A DNA stretch of 62,027 bases, from the NCBI GenBank assembly GCA_900547725.1, contig URHR01000003.1, positions 1 to 62,027 on the forward strand, read 5' to 3'. The number at the start of each line of letters is the position of its first letter. Within the stretch, counting starts at the first letter, position 1. Below the pieces are notes generated by a model, which was given only the letters and a program-made list of their open reading frames with translations, had not been told where the DNA came from and searched no databases. Position numbers and translations under genes: made by a program. Positions 4,962 to 61,924 of this stretch are shown here, in pieces. Source of the DNA: an uncultured Eubacteriales bacterium (lineage in GTDB: Bacteria > Bacillota > Clostridia > Oscillospirales > CAG-272).

Positions 4962-6428
4962 ATGAAAAAAGTAATGAGATGCCTGATAGCCCTGCTCCTG
5001 TGTGCATGCCTGTTGCCGTCCGCTGTTGCCTGCAAGAACAACAAACCTTCGATAGAATCGGGGAACTCCTCCGATGTTGAAACAAAGCCGGGAAACCTGC
5101 CGGCGGAGACGGATGAGGACGGGTATGTACTGGATGATCTGCCGGACAATCCCGCATTTGACAAGACCGTTCGAATGCTTTACTGGGAGGATGTGGAGAA
5201 TGTTGAATTTGATGTGAGCGATCCTTACGGCGACCGCATCAGCAACTCCATTTATATGCGCAATCTTGCCGTAGAGGAACGACTGGGAATCAAACTGTCC
5301 TTCCATGGGACGGCCGGCAATTACGGAAACCTGGACAATTTCCTTGCAACTGCACAGGCGGGCTCGATTTCCGGGGATTATGATCTGTTTGCGGGCTACA
5401 GCATGAGCGGCGCATCCCTGGCGATCAACGGGCTCTGCCTGGATATGAAAACGCAGAAATATCTGAATTTCGAAAAGCCGTGGTGGCCGGAGTCCCTGAC
5501 CTCGGAGACGACAATCATCGACAAGCTGTTCTTCGCCTCCGGCGACATCTCCACCAATCTGCTCCACATGATGTATGTGGTGTTCTATAACCAGGAAATG
5601 ATCGATGCCGTCAGTCTGGAGAATCCGGTGGAGCTGGTGGATGAGGGCACCTGGACCTATGAAAAAATGTTCGATATGGCAAAGGGAATGTACTTGGACA
5701 CCAATTCGAATGATATTACAGATCAGGATGATCAGTACGGTTTCAGCGCCGGAAAAATGCACTATGAGGCCTTATTCACGGGTGCCGGAATCAAGACCAT
5801 TGAGAAGAACAATCTGGGCTGGATGATTGTTTCCCCAACTTTCAACTCCGCCAAGACCACCAAACTGCTGGATGACATCTGCACGTTCGTCCACGGTTCG
5901 AATGACGGCTTTTACGGTACCACCTTTGAAAAAGGACACACGCTGTTTGCCATTGACCGCTCCTACTATGCAATGATCCACAAGGAAGAAATGTCCTTTA
6001 CCTACGGCATTGTGCCGATTCCGAAGTATGACACGATTCAGGAGGGCTATGCCACCTGTCTGGGCAATCCCTTTACGGTTTACTCGATTGCCAAGTCCAG
6101 TGTCATTCCTGATATTGCAGCGGCAACGCTGGAGTGCCTCGCCTCGGAAGCGTACCGGAAGGTGACGCCGGAGCTGTTTGAGGCAACGATGAAATACCAG
6201 TACAGTGACGTTCCCGCTTCCGCGCGGATGTACGATCTGATCCGTAATTCGGTTATCATTGATCTCGGAAGAATTTTTGATAAGGAACTGGATGGCTACC
6301 CGCACACGCTGTTCAGTAATCCCATTGCCAAAAACGCGCCCGAAAGTTTTAGCAGCAGTTACAGAACGGGTGAGGAGACCATGTTGGAACGGTTGAAAAC
6401 CAACATTAACCCGGCATTCTCAAAATAA
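4962..6428 (+). CDS. Extracellular solute-binding lipoprotein (CUT1/LplA-like)
   Basis: 488 aa. The signal peptide has a lipobox (LLPSAVAC). Its size and sequence style match large sugar-binding SBPs, and it is paralogous to 40430..41884. No permease or ATPase gene lies nearby. Confidence 0.7.
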   Translation: MKKVMRCLIALLLCACLLPSAVACKNNKPSIESGNSSDVETKPGNLPAETDEDGYVLDDLPDNPAFDKTVRMLYWEDVENVEFDVSDPYGDRISNSIYMRNLAVEERLGIKLSFHGTAGNYGNLDNFLATAQAGSISGDYDLFAGYSMSGASLAINGLCLDMKTQKYLNFEKPWWPESLTSETTIIDKLFFASGDISTNLLHMMYVVFYNQEMIDAVSLENPVELVDEGTWTYEKMFDMAKGMYLDTNSNDITDQDDQYGFSAGKMHYEALFTGAGIKTIEKNNLGWMIVSPTFNSAKTTKLLDDICTFVHGSNDGFYGTTFEKGHTLFAIDRSYYAMIHKEEMSFTYGIVPIPKYDTIQEGYATCLGNPFTVYSIAKSSVIPDIAAATLECLASEAYRKVTPELFEATMKYQYSDVPASARMYDLIRNSVIIDLGRIFDKELDGYPHTLFSNPIAKNAPESFSSSYRTGEETMLERLKTNINPAFSK

Positions 6429-16163: not shown

Positions 16164-17849
16164 ATGATGAAAAGATTGCTATCTGTATGCTTGACCTTTT
16201 GTATGCTCTTTGGCACGGTCTTCGGACTCTCGCTTCTGACCGAAGCCACCGGATCTGCGGTTTGGGATGGCAGTGCGGACACCTCATGGTACAACACGAC
16301 CGATACCGTTTTTACCCTGACCGACGGTGCCGACCTCGCAGGTTTTGCGGCGATTGTAAACGGCACGGCAGAAGGAATTGAGCAGACTAATTTCGAAGGA
16401 AAAACCGTGCGTCTCGGCGCGGATATCGTTCTGAACGATGGCGATGCAAAGACATGGGGAACATCGGCTGCGGGACTGCAGGCGTTTCCGATGATCGGAA
16501 ACCTGAAGGGATCGACTTATGCAGAAACCGATGAGCCGAAATATTTTGCGGGCGAATTTGACGGGCAGGGATATACGATCTCCGGGCTGTTCATCAATCA
16601 AAAAGTGAATTCCCGCGGCGAGGGGTCGGCACTGTTTGCAGCTGTATACGGTTCGGCAAGCCTGCATGATTTTTCCCTTGTCAATTCGTACATCAGGAAT
16701 CCCAACAACTATGCGGCAGCGGCAATTACGGCATATGTAATGCCGAAATCCTCCGCTGAGGCGGACGCGTTCCATATCTATAATATCTATACCGATGCAA
16801 TCGTAACCGCATCGAACAATAAGAACTTTGGCATTGGCGGCATTGTCGGACGGATCGGATATGCCTGGAGCGATGCAAAGATCAACGACTACAACACAAT
16901 CTCCTCCTGTGTGTTTGCGGGGACGATCATTCACACCGGCACGGGGCTTGCCAATGCAGGCGGAATCATCGGGGATGTCTATGACCATGGCGTCAATGTT
17001 TCGGACTGCCTGAATCTTGGAATCGTACAGAGCGTCAACAACGGAAACTACATTGGCGGCATTGTCGGAAGAGGAAATCCGAATAACAGTAAAATTACGG
17101 TAACAAGTTGCGTAAATGCGGTTACGCCGGATACCGCAAACGCAACGGCAGCCGAAATTCTTTCCATGGAGAACAAATCGCCCCGCCCGGATTTTGCAGT
17201 GAAGGATTGCTTCTATGTGGGAAACAAATATGCGGTCAACCGCGCAACGACGGATCTTGGCGCGAAATTTCCGAAGGTGATTACCGCAACCAAAGTCACC
17301 GCAGAGCAACTGACCGGGCTTGGTGTTTCCGGGGAGATCACCTCCGGACTGAGCGGATGGATTCTGCGGGACGGACAGGTGATGATTCCTGCGGGCGCGG
17401 CGGCGGTTGTTCCGTCCGAACCGTCCCATTTCGCACCGGTCACGGAGGGCGGCGTGGCGTTCCGCGGCGTACAGAATACCGAGGCAAAGGATGGAAGCTT
17501 CAACCTCCGCTTCATCGGAACGGTGGATTCCCTGCATTATTCCGTTCTCGGGTATGATTTATCCTGCACTTGGGCGGAGGGCTCGAAGCCGGAGGCGGAG
17601 TTTACGACCGATACTGTTTACAAGACCATTACCGCAACCGAGAACGGAATGACAAAGCAGTACACGGCAGAAGGTTTTTCGGCAGAATATATCTGGGCGG
17701 TGACAGTGGCAGGCATTCCGGCAACCGGTGACATGACCTTTACCGTCAAGCCTTTTTCCTGTGATCTGGAAGGAAACAAGACCACGGTCGGCGTGTACAC
17801 ACTGGTTTATCGGGACGGACAGTTTGTCAGCCTGACCCGACAGAAATAA
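16164..17849 (+). CDS. Secreted GLUG-repeat protein, paralog 1 (C-terminal beta-rich domain)
   Basis: ORF 16086..17849. I moved the start to ATG 16164 (GGTGGAGGG upstream), giving the signal peptide MMKRLLSVCLTFCMLFGTVFG. It has WDGSADTSWYNTTD..LAGFAAIVNG, FAGEFDGQGYTISGL, and repeated GGI[VI]G....C units. Confidence 0.7.
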   Translation: MMKRLLSVCLTFCMLFGTVFGLSLLTEATGSAVWDGSADTSWYNTTDTVFTLTDGADLAGFAAIVNGTAEGIEQTNFEGKTVRLGADIVLNDGDAKTWGTSAAGLQAFPMIGNLKGSTYAETDEPKYFAGEFDGQGYTISGLFINQKVNSRGEGSALFAAVYGSASLHDFSLVNSYIRNPNNYAAAAITAYVMPKSSAEADAFHIYNIYTDAIVTASNNKNFGIGGIVGRIGYAWSDAKINDYNTISSCVFAGTIIHTGTGLANAGGIIGDVYDHGVNVSDCLNLGIVQSVNNGNYIGGIVGRGNPNNSKITVTSCVNAVTPDTANATAAEILSMENKSPRPDFAVKDCFYVGNKYAVNRATTDLGAKFPKVITATKVTAEQLTGLGVSGEITSGLSGWILRDGQVMIPAGAAAVVPSEPSHFAPVTEGGVAFRGVQNTEAKDGSFNLRFIGTVDSLHYSVLGYDLSCTWAEGSKPEAEFTTDTVYKTITATENGMTKQYTAEGFSAEYIWAVTVAGIPATGDMTFTVKPFSCDLEGNKTTVGVYTLVYRDGQFVSLTRQK

Positions 17850-17862
17850 GGAGGGGAGACTT

Positions 17863-18003
17863 ATGAAAAAGCAATATTCGGCACCTGAGATGATCTGTCA
17901 CAACATGGAATGGACGGATATTCTGACCACTTCCCTCAATTCCCAAACATCCGGGGAGGGGAAATCCTACAACTTTAACGAATGGGGGATAACATCGTTA
18001 TGA
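17863..18003 (+). CDS. 46-aa micro-ORF (small acidic hypothetical protein), family member 1
   Basis: It is not in the ORF track (<60 aa). GGAGG lies 8 nt upstream of ATG 17863. The product is MKKQYSAPEMICHNMEWTDILTTSLNSQTSGEGKSYNFNEWGITSL. Its TGA (18001..18003) overlaps ATG 18000 of the next gene. A same-length, same-motif partner lies at 43453..43593. Confidence 0.55.
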   Translation: MKKQYSAPEMICHNMEWTDILTTSLNSQTSGEGKSYNFNEWGITSL

Positions 18004-19499
18004 AAAGCAAGAGCCTGATTTGTTTCATCCTGTTTTGCGCCCTGCTGGTTACGGCAGTCCTACCGGTTTCCGGAGAGGATTCCTCGCCGGTGGCTACGGC
18101 ATGGGACGGAAGCGCGGATACTTCGTGGTACAACACAACCGATAACACCTTTACTTTAACAGACGCTGCCGACCTTGCCGGCTTTGCCGCCATTGTAAAC
18201 GGCACGGCGGAAGGCATTGCACAGTCCAATTTTCTCGGAAAGACTGTCCGGCTCGGCGCGGATATCCTGCTCAATACGGGTGATGCAGCGTCTTGGACGC
18301 CGGAAACCGAGGGCTTGCAGGCGTTTCCGATTATCGGAAACATCAGCGAAAAAGACGGTGCCGCGGATGCCAGCCTGCAGTTCAGCGGGGAATTTGACGG
18401 ACAGGGACACACCATTTCCGGTCTGTACGTAAACGGTCGGTCCGACTGGTGGGAAGGTTCGGGACTTTTTGCGGCGATATACGGTCCCGCAAAGCTCCAC
18501 GATTTTGCTCTGGTCAACTCGGCGGTCTTTCAGCCCGGTCGTTACAATGCCGCTGCCGTCACAGCATATGCGTTTGTCAAGTCCGGTGAAGAAAAGGATG
18601 CCTTCAGCATTTATAACATCTATACGGATGCAATGATTACTGCGTCTGGCGAAAAAACCGGAATCGGCGGGATTGTCGGTAAAATCTCCGACCCGACCTA
18701 CAAGAGTGTGACGAACGCTTACGGATCGATCCGTTCCTGCGTGTTTGCGGGAAAGATCACCCAAACCGGAAACTGTGCGGCTTATTCGGGAGGCATTCTC
18801 GGAAACGTGAACGATGTCGGCGTGCAGATTTCCGACTGCCTGAACCTCGGAACCATTGTCAGCCTGAACAACCGGGAGTACCTGGGCGGAATTGTCGGAA
18901 AGGGTGACACCAACCACTGTACCATCCGCATCAACCGTTGTGTGAGCGTGGTGGATCCCACCTCTGCCAGCCGAAAAGTCGGCGGAATTATTTCCTTCGG
19001 CAATAAGCCGATTGACGATGACGAATTTTTGGACTGCTTTACCGCCGGCGAGCGTTATGCCGTTTGCAAGGAGGGGAACGAGGCAACCGGAGACAGCATC
19101 CGGACGGGGAAAACCACCCTGCGGGAGCTGGTCGGTGCGGATGTCCCCGAAGCCGTAAAGACAGCACTGACCGGCTGGGTCACGCGTGAGGGCGGAATCA
19201 TCATTCCTGCAGGCGTTGCCGCGCTGACGCCGCTGTTCGGCGATGTGCCAACCCCTCCGTCGGGGGAAAACACGACAGAGACGCCGACCGAGAAGCCAAC
19301 GGATGCTCCCACGAAGCCGAACAATCCGCCTACAGGGGAAAAGCCCGCGCAGGATTCTTCCACACAGGAACGGTCGGCCGGCACTGCGGCGGAAAAGCCG
19401 GCTGAAAAAGGCTGCCAAAGCGCCGTTGGGATTGCACCGCTCCTGGCACTGATACTCTCCGGCATTTACGTCGCGGAGAATAAGAAAAGAAACCGTTGA
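18000..19499 (+). CDS. Secreted GLUG-repeat protein, paralog 2 (Pro/Thr linker plus C-terminal hydrophobic anchor)
   Basis: ORF 17982..19499. I prefer the start at ATG 18000 (MKSKSLICFILFCALLVTAVLPVSGED signal peptide). The N-terminal domain resembles paralog 1. FSGEFDGQGHTISGL is present. The C-terminus is ...GIAPLLALILSGIYVAENKKRNR. Confidence 0.7.
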   Translation: MKSKSLICFILFCALLVTAVLPVSGEDSSPVATAWDGSADTSWYNTTDNTFTLTDAADLAGFAAIVNGTAEGIAQSNFLGKTVRLGADILLNTGDAASWTPETEGLQAFPIIGNISEKDGAADASLQFSGEFDGQGHTISGLYVNGRSDWWEGSGLFAAIYGPAKLHDFALVNSAVFQPGRYNAAAVTAYAFVKSGEEKDAFSIYNIYTDAMITASGEKTGIGGIVGKISDPTYKSVTNAYGSIRSCVFAGKITQTGNCAAYSGGILGNVNDVGVQISDCLNLGTIVSLNNREYLGGIVGKGDTNHCTIRINRCVSVVDPTSASRKVGGIISFGNKPIDDDEFLDCFTAGERYAVCKEGNEATGDSIRTGKTTLRELVGADVPEAVKTALTGWVTREGGIIIPAGVAALTPLFGDVPTPPSGENTTETPTEKPTDAPTKPNNPPTGEKPAQDSSTQERSAGTAAEKPAEKGCQSAVGIAPLLALILSGIYVAENKKRNR

Positions 19500-19501
19500 A
19501 G

Positions 19502-21625
19502 ATGAAAAAACTGATTACAATTGCTCTATGTATTATGCTTGCGGCAGGACTGCTTTTGTCCTGCCGCAACGGAAACGATCCGGCTTCCCCGACAGATGAC
19601 GGGACGGAGAGCAGTACCGTTGCGCTCCGCCCGGAGGAGTGGACTCTAATCCGTCCCCAAAAGGCAAGCCCGGCGTTGACGGCGGAGATTAACCGCCTCA
19701 AGCGTGCTTGGGAGTCGGCAACGGGTGAAACCATTGTGCTGAAAACCGATGCCGATCCGGAGGGGGCGCATGAGATTCTGATCGGGGAGACCTCCCGTGC
19801 GGCGTCCAAAAGCGCGCGGGATGCATTGCAGGGGGATCGGTATGCGCTGACGCATGACGGAAATCATATCGTGATTGTCGGTTCCTGTGATGCGCTGACG
19901 GCGGAGGGCGTTCGCTATTTTGCCGAGACGTATGTCGTCAGTGCCCCCGCGCTGACCCTGCCGGACGGATTGCAGTATGTCAGCGAGGAGTTGGACGTGG
20001 TTTCGCTGACCAACGGAACCCGTTTCCGGTATCCGGTCATCTTTGCGGACGGACTGGATAATACGCCGGACAAGGGGAATCAGAATCGTGTGGATTACAC
20101 CGTTCAGCTGGCGCGGGATCTGCGAAACCGGTTGGAGGCGCTGACAGGTGCCGTTCCCAACCTGAAGTCCGACTGGGTCAAAATCGGAACGGATACCGCA
20201 GACACGTATGAAATTCTGATCGGAGACACGGCGCGTCCCGAATCGGCACAGGCAAAATCCCGCTTGAGGGGAGCACAGGATTACGGCGTTTTCTTCATCG
20301 GAAACAAGATTGTCATCTCTGCATGGACGGAGCAGACACTGGGCAAAGCGGTGAACCTGTTTCTGGAGAACCTGGAACTTTGGCGCGTTTCTGCGGAGGG
20401 GCAGGTCGCGGATATCCGCCTGCGGAAAACGGATCTGACGGATGCATACCGCGGCTGGCAAACGGACATTCCGCTCCCGGAGCGCGGCAAGCTGACCGGA
20501 TGTGTGACCTGCGCAAACGATCAGCTGGAGTATGTATGGACCGATGTACGATCCGATGATTTTTCCGCCTATCGGAAGAAGCTGGAGGCGGATGGGTATA
20601 CCCTGCGGGACGAAAACCGGATTGGCGAGAATCGGTTTGCAACGTATGTCAAGGGAACCGCATTTCTGCACGCATCCTTTGTCCCGAACGGCTCGGCAGG
20701 AATGCCTGCCATCCGGGTCATTACCGGGGTGACGAACAAGGCGCCGTATCTGCCGGAACCGTCATCGGTCAGGCAGGAGTATGTGAAAATCACGGAATCC
20801 AAGCTGACGCAGATGGCGCTGGATTATCAGGCGGGCGACTACGGAATGTGCTACGTTGTTACGCTGGAGGACGGCAGCTTCCTGATTGTGGACGGCGGTG
20901 CAAATATCGGAAAGACCGACCACACCCGGCTTTGGAATCTGCTGAAGCAGCTGAACGAACGCCCGGACGGGAAAATCGTAATCGCCGCATGGCTTTTGAC
21001 GCACAATCACGCCGACCATTATCAGGTCTTTGAGGATTTCTGCGCCGAATACGGCAGTCAGGTGACAATTGAACAGTTCGTCTGCAATGTGCCGGACAGC
21101 ATTGTGGCGTATAACTCCACCGACCCCGGAACGCATTATCAGAACGGTTTTTCAAAATCGTCCCTTGCGGCAGGTGGCATTCGGAACATCAAGCCTTACA
21201 CGGGGATGAAATGGTCGGTGCGCAACGTGGAGCTGGAGGTTCTGTTCACACAGGCGGATCTGTATCCCAAAAAGCTGACGCTGTACAATGATTCCTCCAT
21301 GGCATTCCGAATGACTGTTGCGGGACAGACCATGCTTTGGCTGGGGGATATTCAGACGAACGCTTCCGATGTGATCTGCGCGATGTACGGAGAGAATCTG
21401 AAAAGCGACATGGTTCAGGTTTCTCACCACGGCGGAAACGGCGCCACCGAGCAGCTTTACACGCTGATCCGCCCGACAGTTGCATTTTGGCCGTGCGACC
21501 GTGCGAATTATCAGGGGTACATCCGCCATTTTCCCGCAAGCGACCTGCTGGCAAACCAGTTGGGTGTGAAGAAAAATATTGTTGCCGACCCTGACCATAC
21601 CCTGACTTTTCCGTTCCTTTCCTGA
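19502..21625 (+). CDS. Lipoprotein with two EILIGxT modules and a C-terminal metallo-beta-lactamase-fold domain
   Basis: ORF 19496..21625 with an ATG at 19502. The lipobox is LLLSC. The modules are HEILIGETSRAASKSA and YEILIGDTARPESAQA. The HxHxDH motif is LLTHNHADHYQVF. Confidence 0.7.
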   Translation: MKKLITIALCIMLAAGLLLSCRNGNDPASPTDDGTESSTVALRPEEWTLIRPQKASPALTAEINRLKRAWESATGETIVLKTDADPEGAHEILIGETSRAASKSARDALQGDRYALTHDGNHIVIVGSCDALTAEGVRYFAETYVVSAPALTLPDGLQYVSEELDVVSLTNGTRFRYPVIFADGLDNTPDKGNQNRVDYTVQLARDLRNRLEALTGAVPNLKSDWVKIGTDTADTYEILIGDTARPESAQAKSRLRGAQDYGVFFIGNKIVISAWTEQTLGKAVNLFLENLELWRVSAEGQVADIRLRKTDLTDAYRGWQTDIPLPERGKLTGCVTCANDQLEYVWTDVRSDDFSAYRKKLEADGYTLRDENRIGENRFATYVKGTAFLHASFVPNGSAGMPAIRVITGVTNKAPYLPEPSSVRQEYVKITESKLTQMALDYQAGDYGMCYVVTLEDGSFLIVDGGANIGKTDHTRLWNLLKQLNERPDGKIVIAAWLLTHNHADHYQVFEDFCAEYGSQVTIEQFVCNVPDSIVAYNSTDPGTHYQNGFSKSSLAAGGIRNIKPYTGMKWSVRNVELEVLFTQADLYPKKLTLYNDSSMAFRMTVAGQTMLWLGDIQTNASDVICAMYGENLKSDMVQVSHHGGNGATEQLYTLIRPTVAFWPCDRANYQGYIRHFPASDLLANQLGVKKNIVADPDHTLTFPFLS

Positions 21626-38138: not shown

Positions 38139-39014
38139 ATGAACCTGTCGATTAACGCAAATTATCTGGTTTGCACCAGAGATCCGAATCGCTTCCGCAC
38201 CGCAGGGGAGTGCCTTGCGCTTTGCAGACGTGCGGGTTTCCGTACCTTTGACTATTCCCCGTATCTGGACTGCGACAGCTGGGAGGAAAGCATTGACGCG
38301 GTGATCCGTGCGGCAGACGCGCTGGATGTGGAGCTGGAGCAATCGCACGCGCCCTACAATTACTATGCAAAGCGCACTCCGGAGCACTTTTCCGTGCTGC
38401 TGGATCGCAGTGTGGAGGCGGCGATCCGGATGAAGAACCGCCAGCTGGTGTTCCACATGGACGAATATCATGCGCCGTCTCCCGATGCATATGATCCGGA
38501 TGCCGCTCTGGATCGGGCATACGAAGCGCTGGCGCCGCATATCGAAAAGGCGCTGGCGAACGGTGTCCGGGTGGCGCTGGAGACGATTTTTGAGGATCGC
38601 ATCACCGTCGGAAAAACCGGGCGATCGCACTTCGGGGGAACACTTGATGAGCTGCTTCGGTCGCTCGACCGTTTCCGCCATCCGGACGTCGGGTGCTGTT
38701 GGGACTTCGGTCATGCATATCTGGCATACGGGCGGGAGGGTCAGTTGGATGCCATGCGCACATTGGGCAGCCGCATCATCTGCACCCACACGCACGACAA
38801 CTACTATACAAAGGATCTTCACCTGATGCCGTTCTTGGGAGAGCAGTGCTGGGAGCGGGTCATGCGGACGTTGGCAGAGATCGGATATCGGGGCAATCTG
38901 ACCTATGAATTTGTCTATGGCAGACTGCCCGACCGCCTGATTCCCGCATTCCTCGGCTACGCGCACGATACCGGCGAGGTGCTGATTGATCTGTTTGAAG
39001 GAAAGGAGGGATGA
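38139..39014 (+). CDS. Sugar phosphate isomerase/epimerase (xylose-isomerase-like TIM barrel)
   Basis: 291 aa. The metal-ligand pattern is HAPY...VALETIFED...CWDFGHA...HTHDN...TYEF. Confidence 0.72.
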   Translation: MNLSINANYLVCTRDPNRFRTAGECLALCRRAGFRTFDYSPYLDCDSWEESIDAVIRAADALDVELEQSHAPYNYYAKRTPEHFSVLLDRSVEAAIRMKNRQLVFHMDEYHAPSPDAYDPDAALDRAYEALAPHIEKALANGVRVALETIFEDRITVGKTGRSHFGGTLDELLRSLDRFRHPDVGCCWDFGHAYLAYGREGQLDAMRTLGSRIICTHTHDNYYTKDLHLMPFLGEQCWERVMRTLAEIGYRGNLTYEFVYGRLPDRLIPAFLGYAHDTGEVLIDLFEGKEG

Positions 39015-39018
39015 CGGG

Positions 39019-40365
39019 ATGATCAAAGGAAGAATCGGAAGATGTCTTGCGTGGCTTCTGGCGGGGGTTGTCCTGCTGGCTTCCTGCAAACCGGGGCAGT
39101 CCGATTCCCCACAGGATACTTCGAAAGAAACGTCCGGGCAGACTCCGTCCGGGGCGCTTGAACTGATCCGGGACGGGAAGGCGGGCTGTGGCATCGTGCG
39201 GCAGACCGGTATCGGGAAGGATGCGATGACGCTGTGCTCGGAGCTGTTCGACGCCGTACAGGAGAAGACCGGTGCGGAGATCGGCTTTGTCAGCGACCGG
39301 AAGAGCTTGCAGGACGGTTGGGTCGAGATCCTGATCGGGGACACGAACCGCCCGGAGTCCGCACAGGCAAAGCAGGCGCTGGGAGACGATGCATATTCGG
39401 TTTCGGTCGTCAACCGGAAGCTGGTGCTGGTCGGCGCGGATGAACGGATGCTGGAGCATTGTTTGCGGTCGTTTCTGGATATGATTGCGCAAAATGCGGA
39501 AGCGCTCGGAATGGGACGCGGGTACTGGACCATGCCGCAGGATTTCAGCCGGCGTTTCGACAGCCCGGATGAAAGCTATAACGGACACATCGGAAGGGGA
39601 TATCCGCTCAGCTCCGTGTTTACCAGAATTCCGAAGCTGTGTGCAACCGGCGGAAGCTCCTCGGTCGGGGATTACCGCTTTCCGTGGGTGCAGGGCGGCT
39701 GTACGGACGGCACTTATTACTACGCTTTCATGATTACCGACAACTCCGTAGCGCCGACCAAATGTACGATCTTAAAGTATGAGCTTGCCTCGCAGAATCT
39801 GGTAAAGGTCAGCCGGGAGCTGGAACTGGGGCACGCCAACGATGCCGCATGGAATCCGGATCGGGGCGTGATTGCGGTGTGCGGCTCCGGAATGACCCAC
39901 TATCTGATCGATCCGGAGACTCTGACGGTGAAGGAAACCGTCCGGACTGACAATCCGGGCTACACCGTGGTCTATGACTCCGTGCAAAAGGAGTATCTGA
40001 TGGCAACCTCCACCGCAGTCTATGTCTATGACAGCGACTTCCGTCCGAAACGGCAGTTTGCCATTGAAGGATTCCTTTCGGCGTTTGACGCGGGCGGCAA
40101 GGCGGCAGGGCAGGGAATGACCTGCGACGACACTTATCTTTACTATCTGGAATATTGGCAGAATTCCGCAAACGGAAAGGACATCCGTTGCAATATTGCG
40201 GTCTACCGTCTGCGCACGGGCGCGTTTGTCCAAAGAATTCCGCTGGAGATGAAGCGCGAGGCGGAGAACATCTTCATTTGGAACAACAGCTTTTATGTGG
40301 TGTGCAACAACATCTCCTGGTCCGGCTCGGAATGCTTCCGGATCGATATTGTTCCGGAAGACTGA
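39019..40365 (+). CDS. Lipoprotein with one EILIGDT module and a C-terminal beta-rich domain
   Basis: ORF 38986..40365. I moved the start to ATG 39019 (AAAGGAGGG 8 nt upstream). The lipobox is LLASC. The segment VEILIGDTNRPESAQAKQAL matches the modules in 19502..21625. Confidence 0.6.
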   Translation: MIKGRIGRCLAWLLAGVVLLASCKPGQSDSPQDTSKETSGQTPSGALELIRDGKAGCGIVRQTGIGKDAMTLCSELFDAVQEKTGAEIGFVSDRKSLQDGWVEILIGDTNRPESAQAKQALGDDAYSVSVVNRKLVLVGADERMLEHCLRSFLDMIAQNAEALGMGRGYWTMPQDFSRRFDSPDESYNGHIGRGYPLSSVFTRIPKLCATGGSSSVGDYRFPWVQGGCTDGTYYYAFMITDNSVAPTKCTILKYELASQNLVKVSRELELGHANDAAWNPDRGVIAVCGSGMTHYLIDPETLTVKETVRTDNPGYTVVYDSVQKEYLMATSTAVYVYDSDFRPKRQFAIEGFLSAFDAGGKAAGQGMTCDDTYLYYLEYWQNSANGKDIRCNIAVYRLRTGAFVQRIPLEMKREAENIFIWNNSFYVVCNNISWSGSECFRIDIVPED

Positions 40366-40429
40366 AGCTCCGGGAGCAGGACTGCCCGAACGGGCGAACA
40401 ACCGATTGAAAAGAAAGGATCATTTCACG

Positions 40430-40468
40430 ATGAAAGCGATGAAAGCGATGAAAGCAATGAAAGTGATG
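40430..40468 (+). repeat. 9-bp tandem repeat encoding (MKA)3-MKV-M at a gene start
   Basis: ATGAAAGCG ATGAAAGCG ATGAAAGCA ATGAAAGTG ATG gives five in-frame ATGs. Confidence 0.9.
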
Positions 40469-41884
40469 CAAGCATGGCTTCTGATTCTTGTTTTTGTACT
40501 GCTGGCGGTTTTCCCCTCCTGCAAATCGAAGCCTGAGGGTGGGACGCCGACCGACTCCGGAACAGGGGAGAAAACGGAAATCATTGCGGACATTCCGCAG
40601 CGAGCCTACAATACCCATTTTACCATTCTCAATCCGAACAGAAAGCTGCTGGACACCTATTACTGGTGCGAGGACGAAAAAGCCGGAACATCGATTGACG
40701 CGGCAAACTACGGACGGGAGGCGGCAATTGAGGAGCACCTCGGCATTGAGATCTTCCATGAGCTTTACGAGCTGAAGGAGGGGACGCTGTATCGCCTGAT
40801 CGAACAGCAGAACCTGACCGGAACGGAGGCGTATCAGCTTTTCCTGACGCACTCCTTTCAGGATCTGGTCAGCATTGTGACAACCGACAGCGTGCAGGAT
40901 CTCTCACAGGTTTCCGGGGTCTCCCTGAATGAGGATTACTGGAACACGCAGATCATGGAGCAGGTGCGGTTTCAGGGGCATATGTTCCTCGGGAGCAGCT
41001 CGTTCATTCTCCATGAGCCGGTTGTCATGCTGTTCAACAAAAACATGGCGGGCGCACTGCTGAGCGACGGAGGTGCGGCACAGCTGTACGACCACGTGCG
41101 GGAGAAAACCTGGACCATCGAGCAGATGCAGACCTATGCAAAAATGGTTGATACCGGCATGAACAGCAGTCTTGCCAATAAAAAAGACGGGACTTACGGC
41201 TTTGCAACCCTGTTGGACTGGGAGCTTGCCTCCTTTGCGCAGGCAAACCATTATTTCCACGGCACGGTCACCGAAGAGGGCAGCGTAAAGCTGCAGGCAT
41301 TCAACGATGATATCTTCAAAATCTTTCAGAAGGTCGTCGGGCTGGTGGATCAGGAGTACACGTACAGCTGGAGATATTCCGACATCGGAACCGGCGCGGA
41401 GCTGAGCATCAGTACCGGGCGGGTGCTGTTTGCCACCAGCGGAACGCCGGACATGATTCCGCTGATGCTGGAGAGCGAAATTCCGATCGGCGTTCTGCCG
41501 TATCCGACAATCGAAGCGGGAATGAGCTATCAGAGTCTGGATTGGGCAGGATATTTTGCCGTTCCGCGGGCGATTGCCAACACGCAGATGAGCGGCGAGG
41601 TCGCGGAACTGCTCTCCTGGTACGGTGAGAATACGATCAAGAACGAATTCTACAACGTTCTGCTGGGACTCCGGGCAAGCAACGAACCGGAGGACCGCGA
41701 AATGCTGGCGCTGATCTTCGACAACCTGGTGGCTGACCCGGCTCTGCCCTATATGAATGAGGGCGCATCACCGGTTGCCTACATCTTCTATGTCATTTCC
41801 CGGATGCTCTCCAAAGGGGAGCGCGGAATGGCGGGCTGGTACGCACAGTATTACGACCCCGCACAGGCGGCACTGAAGTTTTGA
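40430..41884 (+). CDS. Extracellular solute-binding lipoprotein (paralog of 4962..6428)
   Basis: ORF 40295..41884. The start is at the first ATG of the repeat (GAAAGGA 10 nt upstream). The signal peptide ends in VFPSC. It resembles the first SBP (for example AIEEHLGIEI vs AVEERLGIKL). Confidence 0.68.
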   Translation: MKAMKAMKAMKVMQAWLLILVFVLLAVFPSCKSKPEGGTPTDSGTGEKTEIIADIPQRAYNTHFTILNPNRKLLDTYYWCEDEKAGTSIDAANYGREAAIEEHLGIEIFHELYELKEGTLYRLIEQQNLTGTEAYQLFLTHSFQDLVSIVTTDSVQDLSQVSGVSLNEDYWNTQIMEQVRFQGHMFLGSSSFILHEPVVMLFNKNMAGALLSDGGAAQLYDHVREKTWTIEQMQTYAKMVDTGMNSSLANKKDGTYGFATLLDWELASFAQANHYFHGTVTEEGSVKLQAFNDDIFKIFQKVVGLVDQEYTYSWRYSDIGTGAELSISTGRVLFATSGTPDMIPLMLESEIPIGVLPYPTIEAGMSYQSLDWAGYFAVPRAIANTQMSGEVAELLSWYGENTIKNEFYNVLLGLRASNEPEDREMLALIFDNLVADPALPYMNEGASPVAYIFYVISRMLSKGERGMAGWYAQYYDPAQAALKF

Positions 41885-41915: not shown

Positions 41916-41968
41916 AGGCATCACCGCGCAATTCCGACGGTGCAATCGCGAATTGCGCGGTAATGCCT
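41916..41968. repeat. Minimal copy of the MITE ends forming a 19-bp hairpin in the 5' leader of 41987
   Basis: AGGCATCACCGCGCAATTC, a 15-nt loop, and GAATTGCGCGGTAATGCCT (18/19 complementary). It is followed by AAAAAAAGGAGAAAACAC-ATG. Confidence 0.75.
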
Positions 41969-41986
41969 AAAAAAAGGAGAAAACAC

Positions 41987-43354
41987 ATGAAACACTTTCG
42001 TTTGCTCGCAGTCCTCGCAGCCCTTTGTATGCTTCTGACCCTTGCATCCTGCGCCACCCCGGACACACCGCCCACCGGAACATCGGGTACATCCGCAACG
42101 GAAACCCCGAACACCCCCACCAAGCCGAATCCGGAAGTCCCCACGTCCGTTCCGACCGGGGAGACCCCCAAGCCTGAGACCCCGACAACCGCCGGAGGAA
42201 ATGAAGGAGAGACTCCCAAGCCCCCGAAGTATGCGTGGGCAACGCAGGGCGGTGACGGAAGTGCGGATTCGCCGCTCATCATCAATCAGGAAAATTTCGT
42301 CGCGTTCTATAACTTCTATCTCCAGGGCGGCTGGAACTCCTTCGGAGATATCAAAGAGCATTTTGCGCTCGGCTCGGACATCGTTGTCAACACCGGAGAC
42401 GCGAAGACATGGGGAACTGCAGCTCCGCAGACTGTGTTTGAAAGATCCATGTGCGCGTTTAACGGACAGCTTGACGGAAAAGGGCACAGCATTTCGGGAC
42501 TGTGCATCAAGGTGTCTAATGCAACCAAAGACGACCGTGCCGCACTGTTCCATCAGATCAATAAGGGTTCGACCGTCAAAAATCTCGGCATTGTCAATTC
42601 TTATATCGAATTGAAATCGGGAGACTTCGGCTATGTCACCAGCGGCACGTTTGCCGGACGGCTGCTCGGAAACATCGAAGGCTGTTACAGCGACGCGGTT
42701 GTGGTCGGCATCGGCGGCACACCGAAAACCAACACCCTGGGCGGCATTGTGGGAATGGTGAATGAAAACGGTGTCACCGTCAAGGGCTGCGTGTTTGCCG
42801 GCTCGGTGACCTCCGAAAACGCGGGAGCAGGCGGAATTGTCGGAAAGATCAATGGCGGAAAGACCGGTGTTGTGATTTCGGACTGCCTCAACCTCGGCGA
42901 TGTGAAAACCGGATTTACCCGTTCGGGCGGTATCCTTGGGGAAAACTCCAACAATGACGATCCGGCAAACAAGATCATCAACTGCATCAATCTTTCGAAA
43001 AACATTGTCAGCGCGGCAACCGCTGAGGGCGGAAAGGCCGGCGGAGAGATTTACGGCGACAACTATGCCAGCATCCGCAAGCTGACAGTCAATACCTATA
43101 TCATCTCCGATGTCCGCGTGTCCGGCGGGACGGTTGCAAACGGCGTGACGCTGGATGAGAACGGTGCGGTTGTGAACGATGAAAAGAACGTCGGCTGGAC
43201 ATTTAAGATCGTTACGCTGAAAGCCTTCCTTGCCGGCGGAGAGAATATGCCGGAGGGGTGGTTTACCGCCGAAGGCTGTCTGCCCTGCCCGATTGAAGGA
43301 CTCCGCATCGAGCTTGCTCCCTACCTCGCGCTCTGGGGCGTGACGCTTGCCTGA
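41987..43354 (+). CDS. GLUG-repeat lipoprotein, paralog 3 (Pro/Thr-rich N-terminal linker)
   Basis: ORF 41963..43354. I moved the start to ATG 41987 (AAGGAGA upstream). The lipobox is LTLASC. FNGQLDGKGHSISGL and GGIVG...C repeats are present. Confidence 0.7.
   Translation: MKHFRLLAVLAALCMLLTLASCATPDTPPTGTSGTSATETPNTPTKPNPEVPTSVPTGETPKPETPTTAGGNEGETPKPPKYAWATQGGDGSADSPLIINQENFVAFYNFYLQGGWNSFGDIKEHFALGSDIVVNTGDAKTWGTAAPQTVFERSMCAFNGQLDGKGHSISGLCIKVSNATKDDRAALFHQINKGSTVKNLGIVNSYIELKSGDFGYVTSGTFAGRLLGNIEGCYSDAVVVGIGGTPKTNTLGGIVGMVNENGVTVKGCVFAGSVTSENAGAGGIVGKINGGKTGVVISDCLNLGDVKTGFTRSGGILGENSNNDDPANKIINCINLSKNIVSAATAEGGKAGGEIYGDNYASIRKLTVNTYIISDVRVSGGTVANGVTLDENGAVVNDEKNVGWTFKIVTLKAFLAGGENMPEGWFTAEGCLPCPIEGLRIELAPYLALWGVTLA
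42636..43246 (+). repeat. 611-bp segment identical to 44584..45194
   Basis: I compared the two stretches line by line and found no mismatch at a constant offset of 1948. The flanking 150 bp are similar but diverged, with a 12-nt indel. The ORF track shows identical antisense ORFs at 42685..43005 and 44633..44953. Confidence 0.9.
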
Positions 43355-43392: not shown

Positions 43393-43430
43393 GATACCGC
43401 CGCCCGATTCTGTATCCGGGCGGCGGTATC
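43393..43430 (+). other. GC-rich 14-bp perfect stem-loop between GLUG paralog 3 and the micro-ORF
   Basis: GATACCGCCGCCCG, a 10-nt loop, and CGGGCGGCGGTATC. No T-run follows. Confidence 0.8.
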
Positions 43431-43452
43431 GGAATAAAGAAAGGAGATTTGC

Positions 43453-43593
43453 ATGATGAAAAGCAGTTTTTACACCTCGCCGGAGATGCTTCTGATAGGG
43501 ACGGATGCCGACGATGTCATCCGCACCTCCGGGATACAGGCAGTCGAAAATGACGGGATTTCTGCAGTGCCGGGCATCCCGTGGAAATCCTGA
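43453..43593 (+). CDS. 46-aa micro-ORF (small acidic hypothetical protein), family member 2
   Basis: It is not in the ORF track. AGGAG lies 6 nt upstream. The product is MMKSSFYTSPEMLLIGTDADDVIRTSGIQAVENDGISAVPGIPWKS. Its stop is 23 nt before ATG 43617. It has the same length, position and motif as 17863..18003. Confidence 0.55.
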   Translation: MMKSSFYTSPEMLLIGTDADDVIRTSGIQAVENDGISAVPGIPWKS

Positions 43594-43616: not shown

Positions 43617-45302
43617 ATGAAGAAATTTGTATGTTTGCTGTTGGTGACGGTACTGCTTCTTGCCGCAACGGCGGCGATCCCTGTGTCCGGTGAAGAAGCG
43701 GAGGAAGCCGCCTTTACCGCACCGGTATTTTTCGGCGTGCAGACCGCACCCGGAGACGGGGAGAACACACAGCATATCCGCTTCATCTCGGTTGCTCCGA
43801 ATGCCGTCGGAACTGCGTTCGGATATGAGATTACCGCACAGTATACGGAAAACGGCGCTCTTCGGACGGTGCGTTACAGTGCCGCCGACGGGGACGCCGT
43901 GCTTGAGGGCAACACGGTGTATCGCTCCGTTCTGACCGGGGCATATCAGGCGGAAGGGACACGGGTTACGGCGCAGGAGCTGGGAAGTCAGTTGACCCCG
44001 CCGATTCCGAACCCGTTCGGTCTGTTTGCCCTGTCGATTCAAAATGTGCCGACGAACATCGGGAACATTACGTTCTGGGTTCGTACTTACGTAAAAAACG
44101 GCGATGCGGTCATGGACAAATCGGGCGCGACCGGGGTTTCGGTGACAAACGGAACGGTTTCCGAAACTGCGGCTGCCCCGGCGTATCCTTGGGTGACGCA
44201 GGGCGGCGACGGGTCTGCCGCCTATCCCTTTGTTCTCAACGGTAAAAATTTCAGAGCGTTTTATTACTACTATTCCAATTGTACCGGCGGCGCGAAGAAC
44301 GGCTTTGCGGCAAACCGTCACTTTGCGTTGGAGAGCGACATTGTCCTGAACGCGGGGGATGCAAAAGCCTGGGGGACGGATGCGCCCGCGCTGGTCTTTG
44401 ACAAATCGATGAACGCATTCAACGGTGTACTCGACGGCAGAGGGCACAGCATTTCGGGACTGTGCATCAAGGTGTCCGGTGACCGTGCCGCACTGTTCCA
44501 TCAGATCAATAAGGGATCGACCGTCAAAAATCTCGGCATTGTCAACTCTTATATCGAACTGAATGCGGGAAGTGCGGGCTATATCACCAGCGGCACGTTT
44601 GCCGGACGGCTGCTCGGAAACATCGAAGGCTGTTACAGCGACGCGGTTGTGGTCGGCATCGGCGGCACACCGAAAACCAACACCCTGGGCGGCATTGTGG
44701 GAATGGTGAATGAAAACGGTGTCACCGTCAAGGGCTGCGTGTTTGCCGGCTCGGTGACCTCCGAAAACGCGGGAGCAGGCGGAATTGTCGGAAAGATCAA
44801 TGGCGGAAAGACCGGTGTTGTGATTTCGGACTGCCTCAACCTCGGCGATGTGAAAACCGGATTTACCCGTTCGGGCGGTATCCTTGGGGAAAACTCCAAC
44901 AATGACGATCCGGCAAACAAGATCATCAACTGCATCAATCTTTCGAAAAACATTGTCAGCGCGGCAACCGCTGAGGGCGGAAAGGCCGGCGGAGAGATTT
45001 ACGGCGACAACTATGCCAGCATCCGCAAGCTGACAGTCAATACCTATATCATCTCCGATGTCCGCGTGTCCGGCGGGACGGTTGCAAACGGCGTGACGCT
45101 GGATGAGAACGGTGCGGTTGTGAACGATGAAAAGAACGTCGGCTGGACATTTAAGATCGTTACGCTGAAAGCCTTCCTTGCCGGCGGAGAGAATGCACCG
45201 GAGGGGTGGAGCTACAGGGAAGGCTGTCTGCCATGCCCGATCGACTGGCTGGATATTGACCTTGCCCCCTATCTGGCCGCATGGGAAATTTCGGGTATCT
45301 GA
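43617..45302 (+). CDS. Secreted GLUG-repeat protein, paralog 4 (extra N-terminal beta-rich domain)
   Basis: ORF 43581..45302. I moved the start to ATG 43617 (MKKFVCLLLVTVLLLAATAAIPVSGEE signal peptide). FNGVLDGRGHSISGL is present. The C-terminal two-thirds are near-identical to paralog 3. Confidence 0.7.
   Translation: MKKFVCLLLVTVLLLAATAAIPVSGEEAEEAAFTAPVFFGVQTAPGDGENTQHIRFISVAPNAVGTAFGYEITAQYTENGALRTVRYSAADGDAVLEGNTVYRSVLTGAYQAEGTRVTAQELGSQLTPPIPNPFGLFALSIQNVPTNIGNITFWVRTYVKNGDAVMDKSGATGVSVTNGTVSETAAAPAYPWVTQGGDGSAAYPFVLNGKNFRAFYYYYSNCTGGAKNGFAANRHFALESDIVLNAGDAKAWGTDAPALVFDKSMNAFNGVLDGRGHSISGLCIKVSGDRAALFHQINKGSTVKNLGIVNSYIELNAGSAGYITSGTFAGRLLGNIEGCYSDAVVVGIGGTPKTNTLGGIVGMVNENGVTVKGCVFAGSVTSENAGAGGIVGKINGGKTGVVISDCLNLGDVKTGFTRSGGILGENSNNDDPANKIINCINLSKNIVSAATAEGGKAGGEIYGDNYASIRKLTVNTYIISDVRVSGGTVANGVTLDENGAVVNDEKNVGWTFKIVTLKAFLAGGENAPEGWSYREGCLPCPIDWLDIDLAPYLAAWEISGI
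44584..45194 (+). repeat. 611-bp segment identical to 42636..43246
   Basis: See the partner entry. Confidence 0.9.
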
Positions 45303-60775: not shown

Positions 60776-61924
60776 TTACTCTTTCATTCTCACAGGCAAC
60801 AGCATAAACAGTTCGTGAATGTTTTCGTCCTCGGCGGGCTCAATGTTGATGGAGGTCAGAGCGGAGGAGAGAGAGATTTTGACGATGTCGGCGGAGCAGG
60901 ACTTCAGGCTGTCAATCAGGAAACGGTTGTTGAACGCAATCACAAGATCTGGCCCTTCGTGCTCGATCGGAACTTCGTCGTAAGTCTCCCCGAGCGTCGA
61001 CTGCGCCGAAATCTTCAACAGATCCCCCGCCAATTCCAGACGAACGTGCGCCCGCACACTGCCAACCACCTTTTCCTCGGTCACAAGCGCCGCGCGATCC
61101 AAAGCCGCAATCAGACGGTCGCGGTCTACCTTGATTGTGATCTTGTGATTCGTCACAATGATGCGGTCGTAATCAATGTACAGACCGTCAATCAGGCGCG
61201 AGAAGAAGATCAGATCGTCAAAGTGGAACACGATATTCCTCAACGTCTTGGTAACGCGCACCGTCGCGTTCTCGTCGTCCTTCAGCATTCTGTACAGCTC
61301 TCCCACCGACTTCGTCGGCAGAATGAACGCGTGGTTCAGCTTCGAGCCGTTCGTGTTGCCGTTCTCAATCGGAACTTCCACCGAGCACTTCGCCAGTTTG
61401 AAGCTGTCGCACGCCACGGCAAGCAGGTTGTCGGTTGTCACCTTGAAATAGCAACCGTTGAGCACCACGCGCTGGTCGTTTGTCGCCATTGCGTAGCTGC
61501 ACTTTGCAATCATTTCCCGCAGGACTGCCTGCGAAATGGTGAATCCGTCCTCGGTTTCCAGCGGTGGGAGCGCGGGGAAGTCCTTCCCGTTCAGCGCGTT
61601 CATGCGGTGCGTGGATTTTCCGCTCGCGATGCACGCCTGCAGGCTCGGGGTGACCGTCAGCGTAACGGTATCGCCTTCCATGACTCTGACCGTTTGCGAA
61701 AATTTCTGCGCGTTGAGGATATAAGACCCTGCCTCCTCGACCTCCGCCTGCACGGACAGCCGGATGCCTTTCTCCAGATCGAATGTCGTAAGCGTACAGG
61801 TGCCGTTCTCGTCCGCCTCGATGAGGATTCCCTCGATTGCGGTCAGCGTCGATTTTCCCGACACTGCGCACATGAGCGGCGCGACGGCGTTACAGATCTC
61901 CTGTCTGTTGAATACGATTTTCAT
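60776..61924 (-). CDS. dnaN: DNA polymerase III beta subunit (sliding clamp)
   Basis: 382 aa. The start MKIVFNRQEICNAVAPLMCAVSGKSTLTAIEGILIEA and the three-domain length are typical of DnaN. Confidence 0.9.
   Translation of the reverse strand: MKIVFNRQEICNAVAPLMCAVSGKSTLTAIEGILIEADENGTCTLTTFDLEKGIRLSVQAEVEEAGSYILNAQKFSQTVRVMEGDTVTLTVTPSLQACIASGKSTHRMNALNGKDFPALPPLETEDGFTISQAVLREMIAKCSYAMATNDQRVVLNGCYFKVTTDNLLAVACDSFKLAKCSVEVPIENGNTNGSKLNHAFILPTKSVGELYRMLKDDENATVRVTKTLRNIVFHFDDLIFFSRLIDGLYIDYDRIIVTNHKITIKVDRDRLIAALDRAALVTEEKVVGSVRAHVRLELAGDLLKISAQSTLGETYDEVPIEHEGPDLVIAFNNRFLIDSLKSCSADIVKISLSSALTSINIEPAEDENIHELFMLLPVRMKE

Follow-up and report, generated by a model that had tools for sequence, protein, structure and literature searches.

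Two micro open reading frames (ORFs) of equal length, each set between genes for paralogous surface proteins, raise the question of whether such short stretches are real genes and, if so, what their products do. They lie in 62,027 nucleotides of DNA from an uncultured Eubacteriales bacterium (contig URHR01000003.1 of assembly GCA_900547725.1, forward strand), which are referred to here as the window. Micro-ORF A occupies positions 17863–18003 and micro-ORF B positions 43453–43593; the flanking genes are of the GLUG type. An earlier note on this DNA had taken micro-ORF A for a real gene and offered three guesses at its role: a chaperone or export adaptor for the flanking proteins, a small secreted or modified peptide, or a translational coupling device. 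Micro-ORFs A and B are shown here to be real genes and divergent members of a very large, unnamed peptide family of gut and rumen Clostridia. With a probability of roughly 0.55, we read them as precursors of the type of ribosomally synthesised peptides that undergo post-translational modification (RiPPs), with a lasso-like leader and no cyclase, co-operonic with surface-protein genes and processed in trans.

Micro-ORFs A and B are real genes of a large peptide family

Micro-ORF A comprises 46 codons and starts at ATG 17863, which follows the sequence GGAGG (17850–17854) after an 8-nt spacer. The TAA of the gene 5' to it (17847–17849) leaves a 13-nt gap, and its own stop codon, TGA 18001–18003, overlaps ATG 18000 of the next gene in an ATGA junction. 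Codon number, ribosome-binding site, gap, junction and translation all matched the earlier description exactly. The second ORF of the same length at the equivalent position of a paralogous locus was likewise found where the note had placed it: micro-ORF B also has 46 codons, is preceded by its own GGAG (43443–43446) and lies between the paralogues at 41963–43354 and 43617–45302. Unlike micro-ORF A, it starts 98 nt past the upstream stop codon, behind a 14-bp hairpin, and ends 23 nt ahead of the next ATG without overlapping it. Translation bore out that the peptides have no signal peptide, whereas all partner proteins are Sec or lipoprotein substrates.

The motif that the note had seen in both ORFs was confined to these two in a regular-expression scan of all six frames of the window. 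An independent family profile of 141 members, from which relatives of the window were excluded, matched only A (E 8.5e-11) and B (E 2.6e-9) among the 1316 window ORFs of 20–150 aa; the third-best ORF reached E 2.8. HMMER, run exhaustively against 1.84 billion representative proteins (E ≤ 1e-3), then returned 4006 clusters, formed at 50% identity, of 30–65-aa peptides that share the plan of the micro-ORFs. Confinement of the motif to this genome, which the note had named as grounds for dropping the gene, was thus tested, and the motif recurs far outside it. Among the best 150 family matches, 148 are at most 97 aa long and most alignments begin at residue 1. In two longer proteins, P0059 (377 aa) and P0100 (487 aa), it is internal repeats (...PDEDVVTASGPPEVI... 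and ...ADDLLTASG...) that align with the profile; these are probably unrelated low-complexity or repeat matches rather than members.

Family members consist of a leader of about 24 residues with the consensus MKKxYxxPEMEIIEFxxEDVIT[TA]S, which includes a lasso-like YxxP motif, and a hypervariable, acidic tail of 8–41 aa (median 18 aa, mean charge -3.9). A Trp, Phe or Tyr lies within the last six residues in 95 of 138 sampled tails, and the leaders of sampled members end in TTS (69) or TAS (41). Both 46-aa window peptides match the profile from residue 1 or close to it and fall within the 30–65-aa size range; the leader of micro-ORF A retains family positions Y5, P8, E9, M10, D19 and T-T-S. No Pfam or NCBIfam model covers the family, and a scan of 25 members produced only sub-threshold noise. 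The sole curated signal was a sub-threshold match to the cyanobacterial lasso leader model NF033528 (lasso_cyano) over residues 1–13 (E 0.017), given by five of the 25. Members are unnamed or listed as 'hypothetical protein' in the source databases, and literature searches by sequence string and by topic found no relevant paper on the family.

Orthologues of micro-ORF A form 17 clusters (78–98% identity, 46–47 aa) and were called independently by the gene callers in related assemblies; those of micro-ORF B form five clusters, to which a later profile search added a sixth. Across 22 of these clusters (17 for A and five for B), frame and length are kept, with no stop codon and no frameshift. Such lesions were what the earlier note had said would refute a real gene, and their absence, together with the specificity of the profile, upholds its claim. 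The tails also retain patterns of their own, SGEG.SYNF.EWG across the 17 clusters of A and GIQAxENDGxSxVPxIxWK in six clusters of B. Among 47 distinct leader DNA sequences from metagenome loci, the proportion of nonsynonymous differences (pN) was 0.16, while that of synonymous differences (pS) was saturated at 0.78; the family leader is therefore under strong purifying selection. A translational coupling device, one of the three guesses, cannot account for this conservation of leader amino acids across thousands of clusters.

Partner genes and putative processing cassettes of the family

The search for relatives beside GLUG-type genes, which the earlier note had called for, showed that the linkage recurs in many lineages. 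A scan of one genome per species with GLUG paralogues yielded few loci. In the distant loci L007, L009 and L011, a small ORF with the same N-terminal motif follows a GLUG-like gene after 12–17 nt; the peptide of L007 (MNMKQIYENPTVEFVLLHTEDILTAS...) is followed by a terminator, and those of L009 and L011 start MKKFISPELELIRLDVVDIITAS... and MRKTYSSPMANPVMYPVEDIITVS..., respectively. In L020 and L023, the peptide gene lies 19 and 3 nt after the surface-protein gene, so that a spacing of 3–19 nt holds for a GLUG-like partner in L007, L009, L011 and L020 and for a non-GLUG surface protein in L023. In both L007 and L020, no further gene separates the peptide gene from a terminator.

A metagenome scan with a 12-sequence alignment gave 80 loci, skewed to one leader subtype and one abundant gut species, with 88 family micro-ORFs (62 distinct sequences). 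A same-strand ORF of at least 300 aa ended no more than 100 nt upstream of 63 of the 73 micro-ORFs that had more than 1 kb of upstream sequence, and 45 of 48 complete upstream proteins had a hydrophobic N-terminus. The two window micro-ORFs conform to this arrangement, lying on the same strand 13 nt (A) and 98 nt (B) 3' of a gene for a large secreted protein. Of 67 upstream proteins, more than 40 contain a GLUG-like domain (E 1e-17 to 1e-26). By homology the upstream proteins make up six groups, with the non-GLUG ones spread over several unrelated secreted groups. Tandem cassettes of a large protein plus a micro-ORF are common (L028, L048, L053, L057). L016 contains three micro-ORFs, each 5' of a gene for a secreted protein of 1250–1334 aa, and the partners in this locus, like those in L013, are not GLUG-like. 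A SCIFF peptide gene with its radical SAM maturase lies just 5' of the three tandem cassettes of L016 (394–2160), a proximity that is probably coincidental. Given the metagenome counts and the several distant lineages, the pairing of family peptides with large secreted proteins is general, with GLUG-type proteins as the commonest partner. No precedent for a one-to-one pairing of a peptide with a large secreted protein was found in the literature.

Candidate processing genes accompany part of the family. In L019, a classic RiPP cluster to which the Cys-rich member P0047 belongs, two Cys-rich precursors are followed by genes for a radical SAM enzyme, a PqqD protein and a 154-aa peptidase-like protein, homologues of which are encoded a few kb 3' of the micro-ORFs in 18 loci. 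The 154-aa protein has the motifs G-x-S-M-x-P, H-R and G-D-N, and the top three matches of its profile in the PDB were B. anthracis signal peptidase I, SEC11C and SpsB (E 0.06–0.43), with the motifs aligned. It is a candidate Sec11/SipW-like S26 peptidase, an assignment with weak statistical support. Type I signal peptidases follow the -3/-1 rule (small-x-small), with which the leader ends TTS and TAS would be compatible.

The cassette further encodes a PqqD protein (PF05402, E 8e-15), a nucleotidyltransferase (PF14907, E 3e-41), an ABC exporter and a P-loop protein of 240–280 aa with the motif LFHGS...SGTGKST. The last weakly resembles HprK-related kinase A (HprK_rel_A) and ScmC; a comparison with the PDB gave no meaningful match. 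Of the 37 loci whose downstream sequence reached 3 kb or more, 17 had cassette genes, and at least three kinds occurred together in 16 of those 17. A self-contained cassette without a surface protein is found in L093, where HprK-like, PqqD, ABC, precursor, peptidase and PF14907 genes are flanked by genes on the opposite strand. In the ORF maps of 11 cassette loci, L093 among them, and in Pfam scans of selected cassette proteins, there was no sign of a lasso cyclase or of a B2 peptidase. The RRE-Finder papers make no mention of a cassette of PqqD, HprK-like, S26, PF14907 and ABC genes. In one gut species (L042, 8196–9515; also L032 and L067), a 439-aa ATPase-like gene, absent from other cassettes, lies between the HprK-like and PqqD genes and looks like an insertion.

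Weighing a RiPP-type precursor against its rivals

A conserved leader followed by a hypervariable core in a short ORF, a feature of RiPPs that depend on a RiPP recognition element (RRE), is the plan of this family; a PqqD/RRE protein with a modifying enzyme nearby was found in L019 and in 17 of 37 metagenome loci, not in the window. We propose that a PqqD-type recognition protein binds the leader and that the tail would then be tailored by the HprK-like P-loop protein and the PF14907 nucleotidyltransferase or, in Cys-rich variants, by a radical SAM enzyme instead. The putative Sec11/SipW-like S26 peptidase would remove the leader after the small-x-small sequence T-x-S, and the ABC transporter would export the tail. 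As the processing genes are not in the window, they would need to act in trans in this genome. The one-to-one co-operonic arrangement of peptide and secreted-protein genes suggests that the mature tail acts outside the cell together with the neighbouring surface protein, which is the weakest step of the proposal. An AlphaFold2 (AF2) model of peptide A alone had no stable fold (predicted local distance difference test score, pLDDT, 66.6), with the N-terminal 20 residues being the most confident part. This fits the behaviour expected of a leader that becomes ordered on binding and speaks against an autonomous chaperone. Among the guesses of the earlier note, the small secreted or modified peptide therefore fits best, in the form of a RiPP-type leader whose relatives share operons with PqqD, peptidase, ABC exporter and tailoring-type enzymes. 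The chaperone or export adaptor gained no support, with no predicted fold and partners from several unrelated families.

Several observations weigh against a RiPP-type precursor. The peptides are predicted from sequence, their modification, cleavage and export are proposed, and the matches behind the peptidase and kinase assignments are sub-threshold. Pfam scans and local hidden Markov models (HMMs), the latter for the PqqD, peptidase, HprK-like and PF14907 proteins, detected no PqqD, S26-like peptidase, HprK-like, PF14907, radical SAM or ABC exporter gene in the 62-kb window. Cassette genes are also missing from 20 of the 37 related loci with at least 3 kb downstream, and in L001 and L110–L112, lineages similar to that of the window, there is no cassette within 10 kb, only a GLUG-like gene followed by a micro-ORF, in glycan-utilisation contexts. 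Moreover, the window leaders diverge in their middle part, with ICHNMEW and LLIGTDA in place of the family's E[IV][IV]EFE.

Selection on close orthologues is a further point on that side, and here the dN/dS comparison suggested by the earlier note gave a divided answer, with a strong signal for the leader of the family as a whole and a weaker one for the close orthologues of the two micro-ORFs. For micro-ORF A, dN was 0.108–0.114 and dS 0.113–0.132 (ω ~0.9, from only 28 synonymous sites), and for micro-ORF B ω was ~0.67, as against 0.13–0.47 for the flanking GLUG genes (0.13–0.24 beside A, 0.29–0.47 beside B); FucI, compared along with B, gave 0.06. Differences between the micro-ORF orthologues were not enriched at third codon positions. 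The total divergence of micro-ORF A, 14–15 per 141 nt, is well under the dS of its flanking genes (0.22–0.55), which is several-fold higher, and by that yardstick its dN is ~0.2–0.5 of neutral. We read the pattern as a constrained leader joined to a fast-evolving tail, while leaving room for relaxed constraint on the micro-ORFs in the window lineage.

In the rival that survives best, though it is unlikely, the peptide stays unmodified and is a small partner of the surface protein next to it, made at about 1:1 through translational coupling and serving as a pre-export holdase, export adaptor, inhibitor or strand donor for the β-helix, with no RiPP processing in the window lineage. Such a role would agree with the close one-to-one association with large secreted proteins seen across many lineages, the 13-nt and ATGA junctions, the lack of a processing gene in the window and within 10 kb in window-like lineages, tails that differ from cassette to cassette and a pace of peptide evolution close to that of the fast-evolving neighbours. 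It is harder to reconcile with a peptide that has neither a signal peptide nor an autonomous fold beside partners that are all Sec or lipoprotein substrates, with the spread of these partners over unrelated families (six homology groups, including the non-GLUG proteins of L013 and L016) and with a conserved part of the leader type used by PqqD and radical SAM clusters.

Less weight still is given to the improbable reading of A and B as decaying relics of precursors whose machinery has been lost in this lineage and which stay open mainly for the passage of ribosomes to the downstream gene. The dN/dS values of ~0.7–1 in close orthologues, with differences over all codon positions, the divergent mid-leader sequence, the lack of a nearby cassette and the ATGA overlap at locus A are what such decay would leave. 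Against it stand the constant length of 46–47 aa in 22 orthologue clusters without stop or frameshift, a divergence of A that is low relative to flank dS, the conserved tail motifs SGEG.SYNF.EWG and GIQAxENDG..VP.I.WK and the fact that micro-ORF B overlaps neither neighbour. In L007 and L020, where the peptide gene is the last before the terminator, coupling cannot be its purpose.

True lasso precursors, with a cyclase encoded elsewhere, were considered first because of the YxxP leader and of two possible rings, Gly1–Asp8 in a B core GIQAVEND... and Ser1–Glu9 in an A core SLNSQTSGE.... Lasso systems of Firmicutes (paeninodin/pseudomycoidin type) comprise a precursor, a PqqD-like B1 protein, a B2 protein, a cyclase C, an ABC exporter, an HPr-kinase-like kinase and a nucleotidyltransferase (PMC7533575). 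The family resembles them in its short precursor, in a leader with Y-x-x-P-x-hydrophobic (YxxPxM in both window peptides) and a small or Thr-rich end with a Thr close by, and in a cassette with a stand-alone PqqD recognition protein, which scores best against lasso PqqD models, an ABC exporter and HprK-like and PF14907-type proteins, the latter two being known lasso tailoring enzymes in Firmicutes (PMC7533575). It differs in that the cassettes, by their ORF maps, have no Asn-synthetase-like cyclase and no transglutaminase-like B2 peptidase, and neither of these is present in the window; no gene of the size or type of a cyclase occurs in the 11 mapped cassette loci, even the compact L093, and a Sec11/SipW-like S26 peptidase takes the place of B2. 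The penultimate Thr(-2) varies, with leader ends TTS, TAS, ATS and TTP among A orthologues (e.g., DILTAS, DILATS, DILTTP) and RTS and RPS for B (e.g., DEVLRPS). All lasso NCBIfam models score below cut-off on the family, the match to NF033528 reaching 15.1 bits against a cut-off of 33. A core that starts with G, S, A or C and has D or E at positions 7–9 is possible in one register in each peptide, but with ~24% D+E in the tails an acidic residue at these positions is expected by chance in about half of them, and many family tails are of excessive length, reaching 41 aa, or have no such residue, e.g., the L009 type. Finally, the family precursors are paired with genes for large surface proteins. 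A true lasso peptide was therefore rejected as very improbable.

A double-glycine bacteriocin leader was dismissed, as hydrophobic residues are misplaced for it, the residue after most leaders is not Gly and alignment of the ABC exporters with the peptidase-ABC models begins only at about model position 135; an RNA element was rejected as well, Rfam at gathering thresholds giving no match anywhere in the window.

Surroundings, known systems and meaning

The coordinates of the features at both loci are collected in Table 1.

Table 1. Features of the two micro-ORF loci, in window coordinates.
Feature	Position	Strand	Remarks
GLUG-type β-helix surface-protein paralogue A1	16167..17849	+	560 aa, signal peptide; directly 5' of micro-ORF A
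GGAGG ribosome-binding site of micro-ORF A	17850..17854	+	read from the sequence, 8 nt 5' of the ATG
Micro-ORF A, leader (codons 1-24), MKKQYSAPEMICHNMEWTDILTTS	17863..17934	+	match to family profile, positions 1-34, E 8.5e-11
Micro-ORF A, variable tail LNSQTSGEGKSYNFNEWGITSL and TGA overlapping ATG 18000	17935..18003	+	
GLUG-type paralogue A2	18000..19499	+	499 aa, with signal peptide and C-terminal membrane anchor; translational coupling to micro-ORF A
GLUG-type paralogue B1, lipoprotein-type signal	41963..43354	+	5' of micro-ORF B
14-bp GC-rich hairpin without U-tract	43393..43430	+	between B1 and micro-ORF B
Micro-ORF B, leader MMKSSFYTSPEMLLIGTDADDVIRTS	43453..43530	+	match to family profile, E 2.6e-9
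Micro-ORF B, variable tail GIQAVENDGISAVPGIPWKS and stop codon	43531..43593	+	
GLUG-type paralogue B2	43617..45302	+	561 aa, signal peptide; 23 nt 3' of micro-ORF B

The four proteins flanking the micro-ORFs are mutual paralogues with signal or lipoprotein peptides. A1, whose orthologues are also called as 560 aa, has no Pfam match and is 52% identical to A2; B1 and B2 share 75% identity. None of the four matches Pfam Glug (PF07581) at E ≤ 1, so that the name given to them in the earlier note does not follow from Pfam. An AF2 model of A2 has a β-helix core (pLDDT 75–90, predicted TM score 0.66) of the GLUG type seen in IgA1 proteases, for which Foldseek returned 3n6z (BACOVA_03286) as the best PDB match (E 1.6e-7, TM 0.64), along with the IgA1 proteases of streptococci and Gemella (7uvl, 7uvk, 6xjb; E ~2e-3 for 7uvl and 6xjb). 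An HMM of the window paralogues and their homologues matches the protein encoded 5' of the L042 micro-ORF (E 2.5e-25), which has a true PF07581 match (E 6e-18). On the strength of the fold and of this link, 'GLUG-type' is a fair label. The flanking proteins share their fold with the IgA1 proteases and BACOVA_03286; they differ from the IgA1 proteases in having no metalloprotease domain and no Pfam Glug match at this threshold. No small companion peptide of such proteins is described in the literature found, and searches of the PDB with the peptide and GLUG profiles gave nothing meaningful.

An alternative in-frame ATG of A2 lies at 17982, within micro-ORF A; in related contigs the gene is called from 18000 (499 aa), the start from which a normal signal peptide results. 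At locus B, the hairpin upstream of the micro-ORF has a folding energy of -34.6 kcal/mol (z -4.4), which none of 200 shuffled sequences equalled, and is kept in the orthologous locus L010 of a metagenome-assembled genome save for one A-to-G change. It was not scored as a terminator; a role in processing or stabilisation, or in weak termination, is possible. A 300-nt block of B1 and B2 (42533–42832 and 44481–44780) is 96% identical amid neighbouring blocks of only 71–76% identity, which suggests recent gene conversion between these genes; further paired blocks are 42359–42516 with 44319–44476 and 43271–43329 with 45219–45277. An apparent rearrangement in locus L002 results from N-gaps in its scaffold.

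Elsewhere in the window, a 2380-aa surface protein (48729–55871) contains many Listeria-Bacteroides-type repeats and, close to the C-terminus, a GLUG-like domain (residues ~1990–2169, E 5.6e-11 with the paralogue HMM); no family micro-ORF adjoins its gene. Two pairs of lipoprotein-type paralogues without a Pfam family were found, 19502–21625 with 38986–40365 (29% identity, E 5e-8) and 4962–6428 with 40430–41884 (23% identity, E 1e-7), and a 707-aa protein among them has weak matches to the metallo-β-lactamase fold. The lipoprotein gene at 40295–41884 probably starts within a tandem repeat, ATGAAAGC(G/A) three times and then ATGAAAGTG (MKAMKAMKAMKV), at 40430–40465; several in-frame starts are possible, and the copy number of the repeat might vary. 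Pfam scans of essentially all large ORFs of the window identified genes of sugar catabolism, namely GH20, GH4, UxaC, KDPG aldolase, GH30 and fucosidase, as well as GDSL esterases, regulators and dnaN, and FucI was recognised through its L010 orthologue. The GLUG loci with their accompanying lipoprotein pairs have the look of glycan-utilisation modules that occur repeatedly. At the window's right end, dnaN (60776–61924, minus strand) and a change in the sign of the GC skew within the last 2 kb place this end probably near the replication origin.

Two further known systems resemble the family. The radical-SAM/SPASM RiPPs with a PqqD-type RRE (sactipeptides and ranthipeptides) have their counterpart in the Cys-rich branch, in which precursors (P0047, L019) lie directly 5' of radical SAM and PqqD genes; by contrast, only three of 138 sampled family tails have at least two Cys, and the window peptides have at most one, located in the leader, with no radical SAM gene in the window. 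The HPr-rel-A/SynChlorMet cassettes of Haft (TIGR04352 HprK_rel_A, TIGR04353 PqqD_rel_X, TIGR04249 ScmC) likewise combine an HprK-like P-loop protein with PqqD, their product being unknown, but the family matches are far under the cut-offs (21.4 vs 125, 16.4 vs 200 and 21.2 vs 35), and the two sides have different taxa, peptidases and precursors. Both components, an RRE-dependent precursor and a GLUG β-helix, are of known kinds. Curated models and the searchable literature yielded no counterpart of the leader family, of the enzyme set with an S26-like leader peptidase or of the systematic pairing with surface proteins.

A bolder extension of the precursor reading, which we hold only tentatively and consider doubtful, is that peptides and cassette form a new, cyclase-less class of RiPPs whose products would serve GLUG-type proteins as partner-specific ligands or as covalent decorations, a module of thousands of gut and rumen Clostridia lineages that in this organism would sit in glycan-utilisation loci and be served in trans. 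If true, a small-peptide family that ranks among the largest in the microbiota of human gut and rumen, with at least 4006 clusters at 50% identity, no model and no name, has been overlooked. It would stand for a RiPP-type pathway with an unusual set of enzymes, comprising an RRE, an HprK-like protein, a nucleotidyltransferase and a signal-peptidase-like leader protease, and no cyclase. The leader profile offers a simple means of annotating thousands of unannotated genes for products of less than 60 aa. The pairing points to a testable link between matured peptides and the proteins on the surface of commensal Clostridia; adhesion, glycan capture or cell-cell recognition are possible roles.

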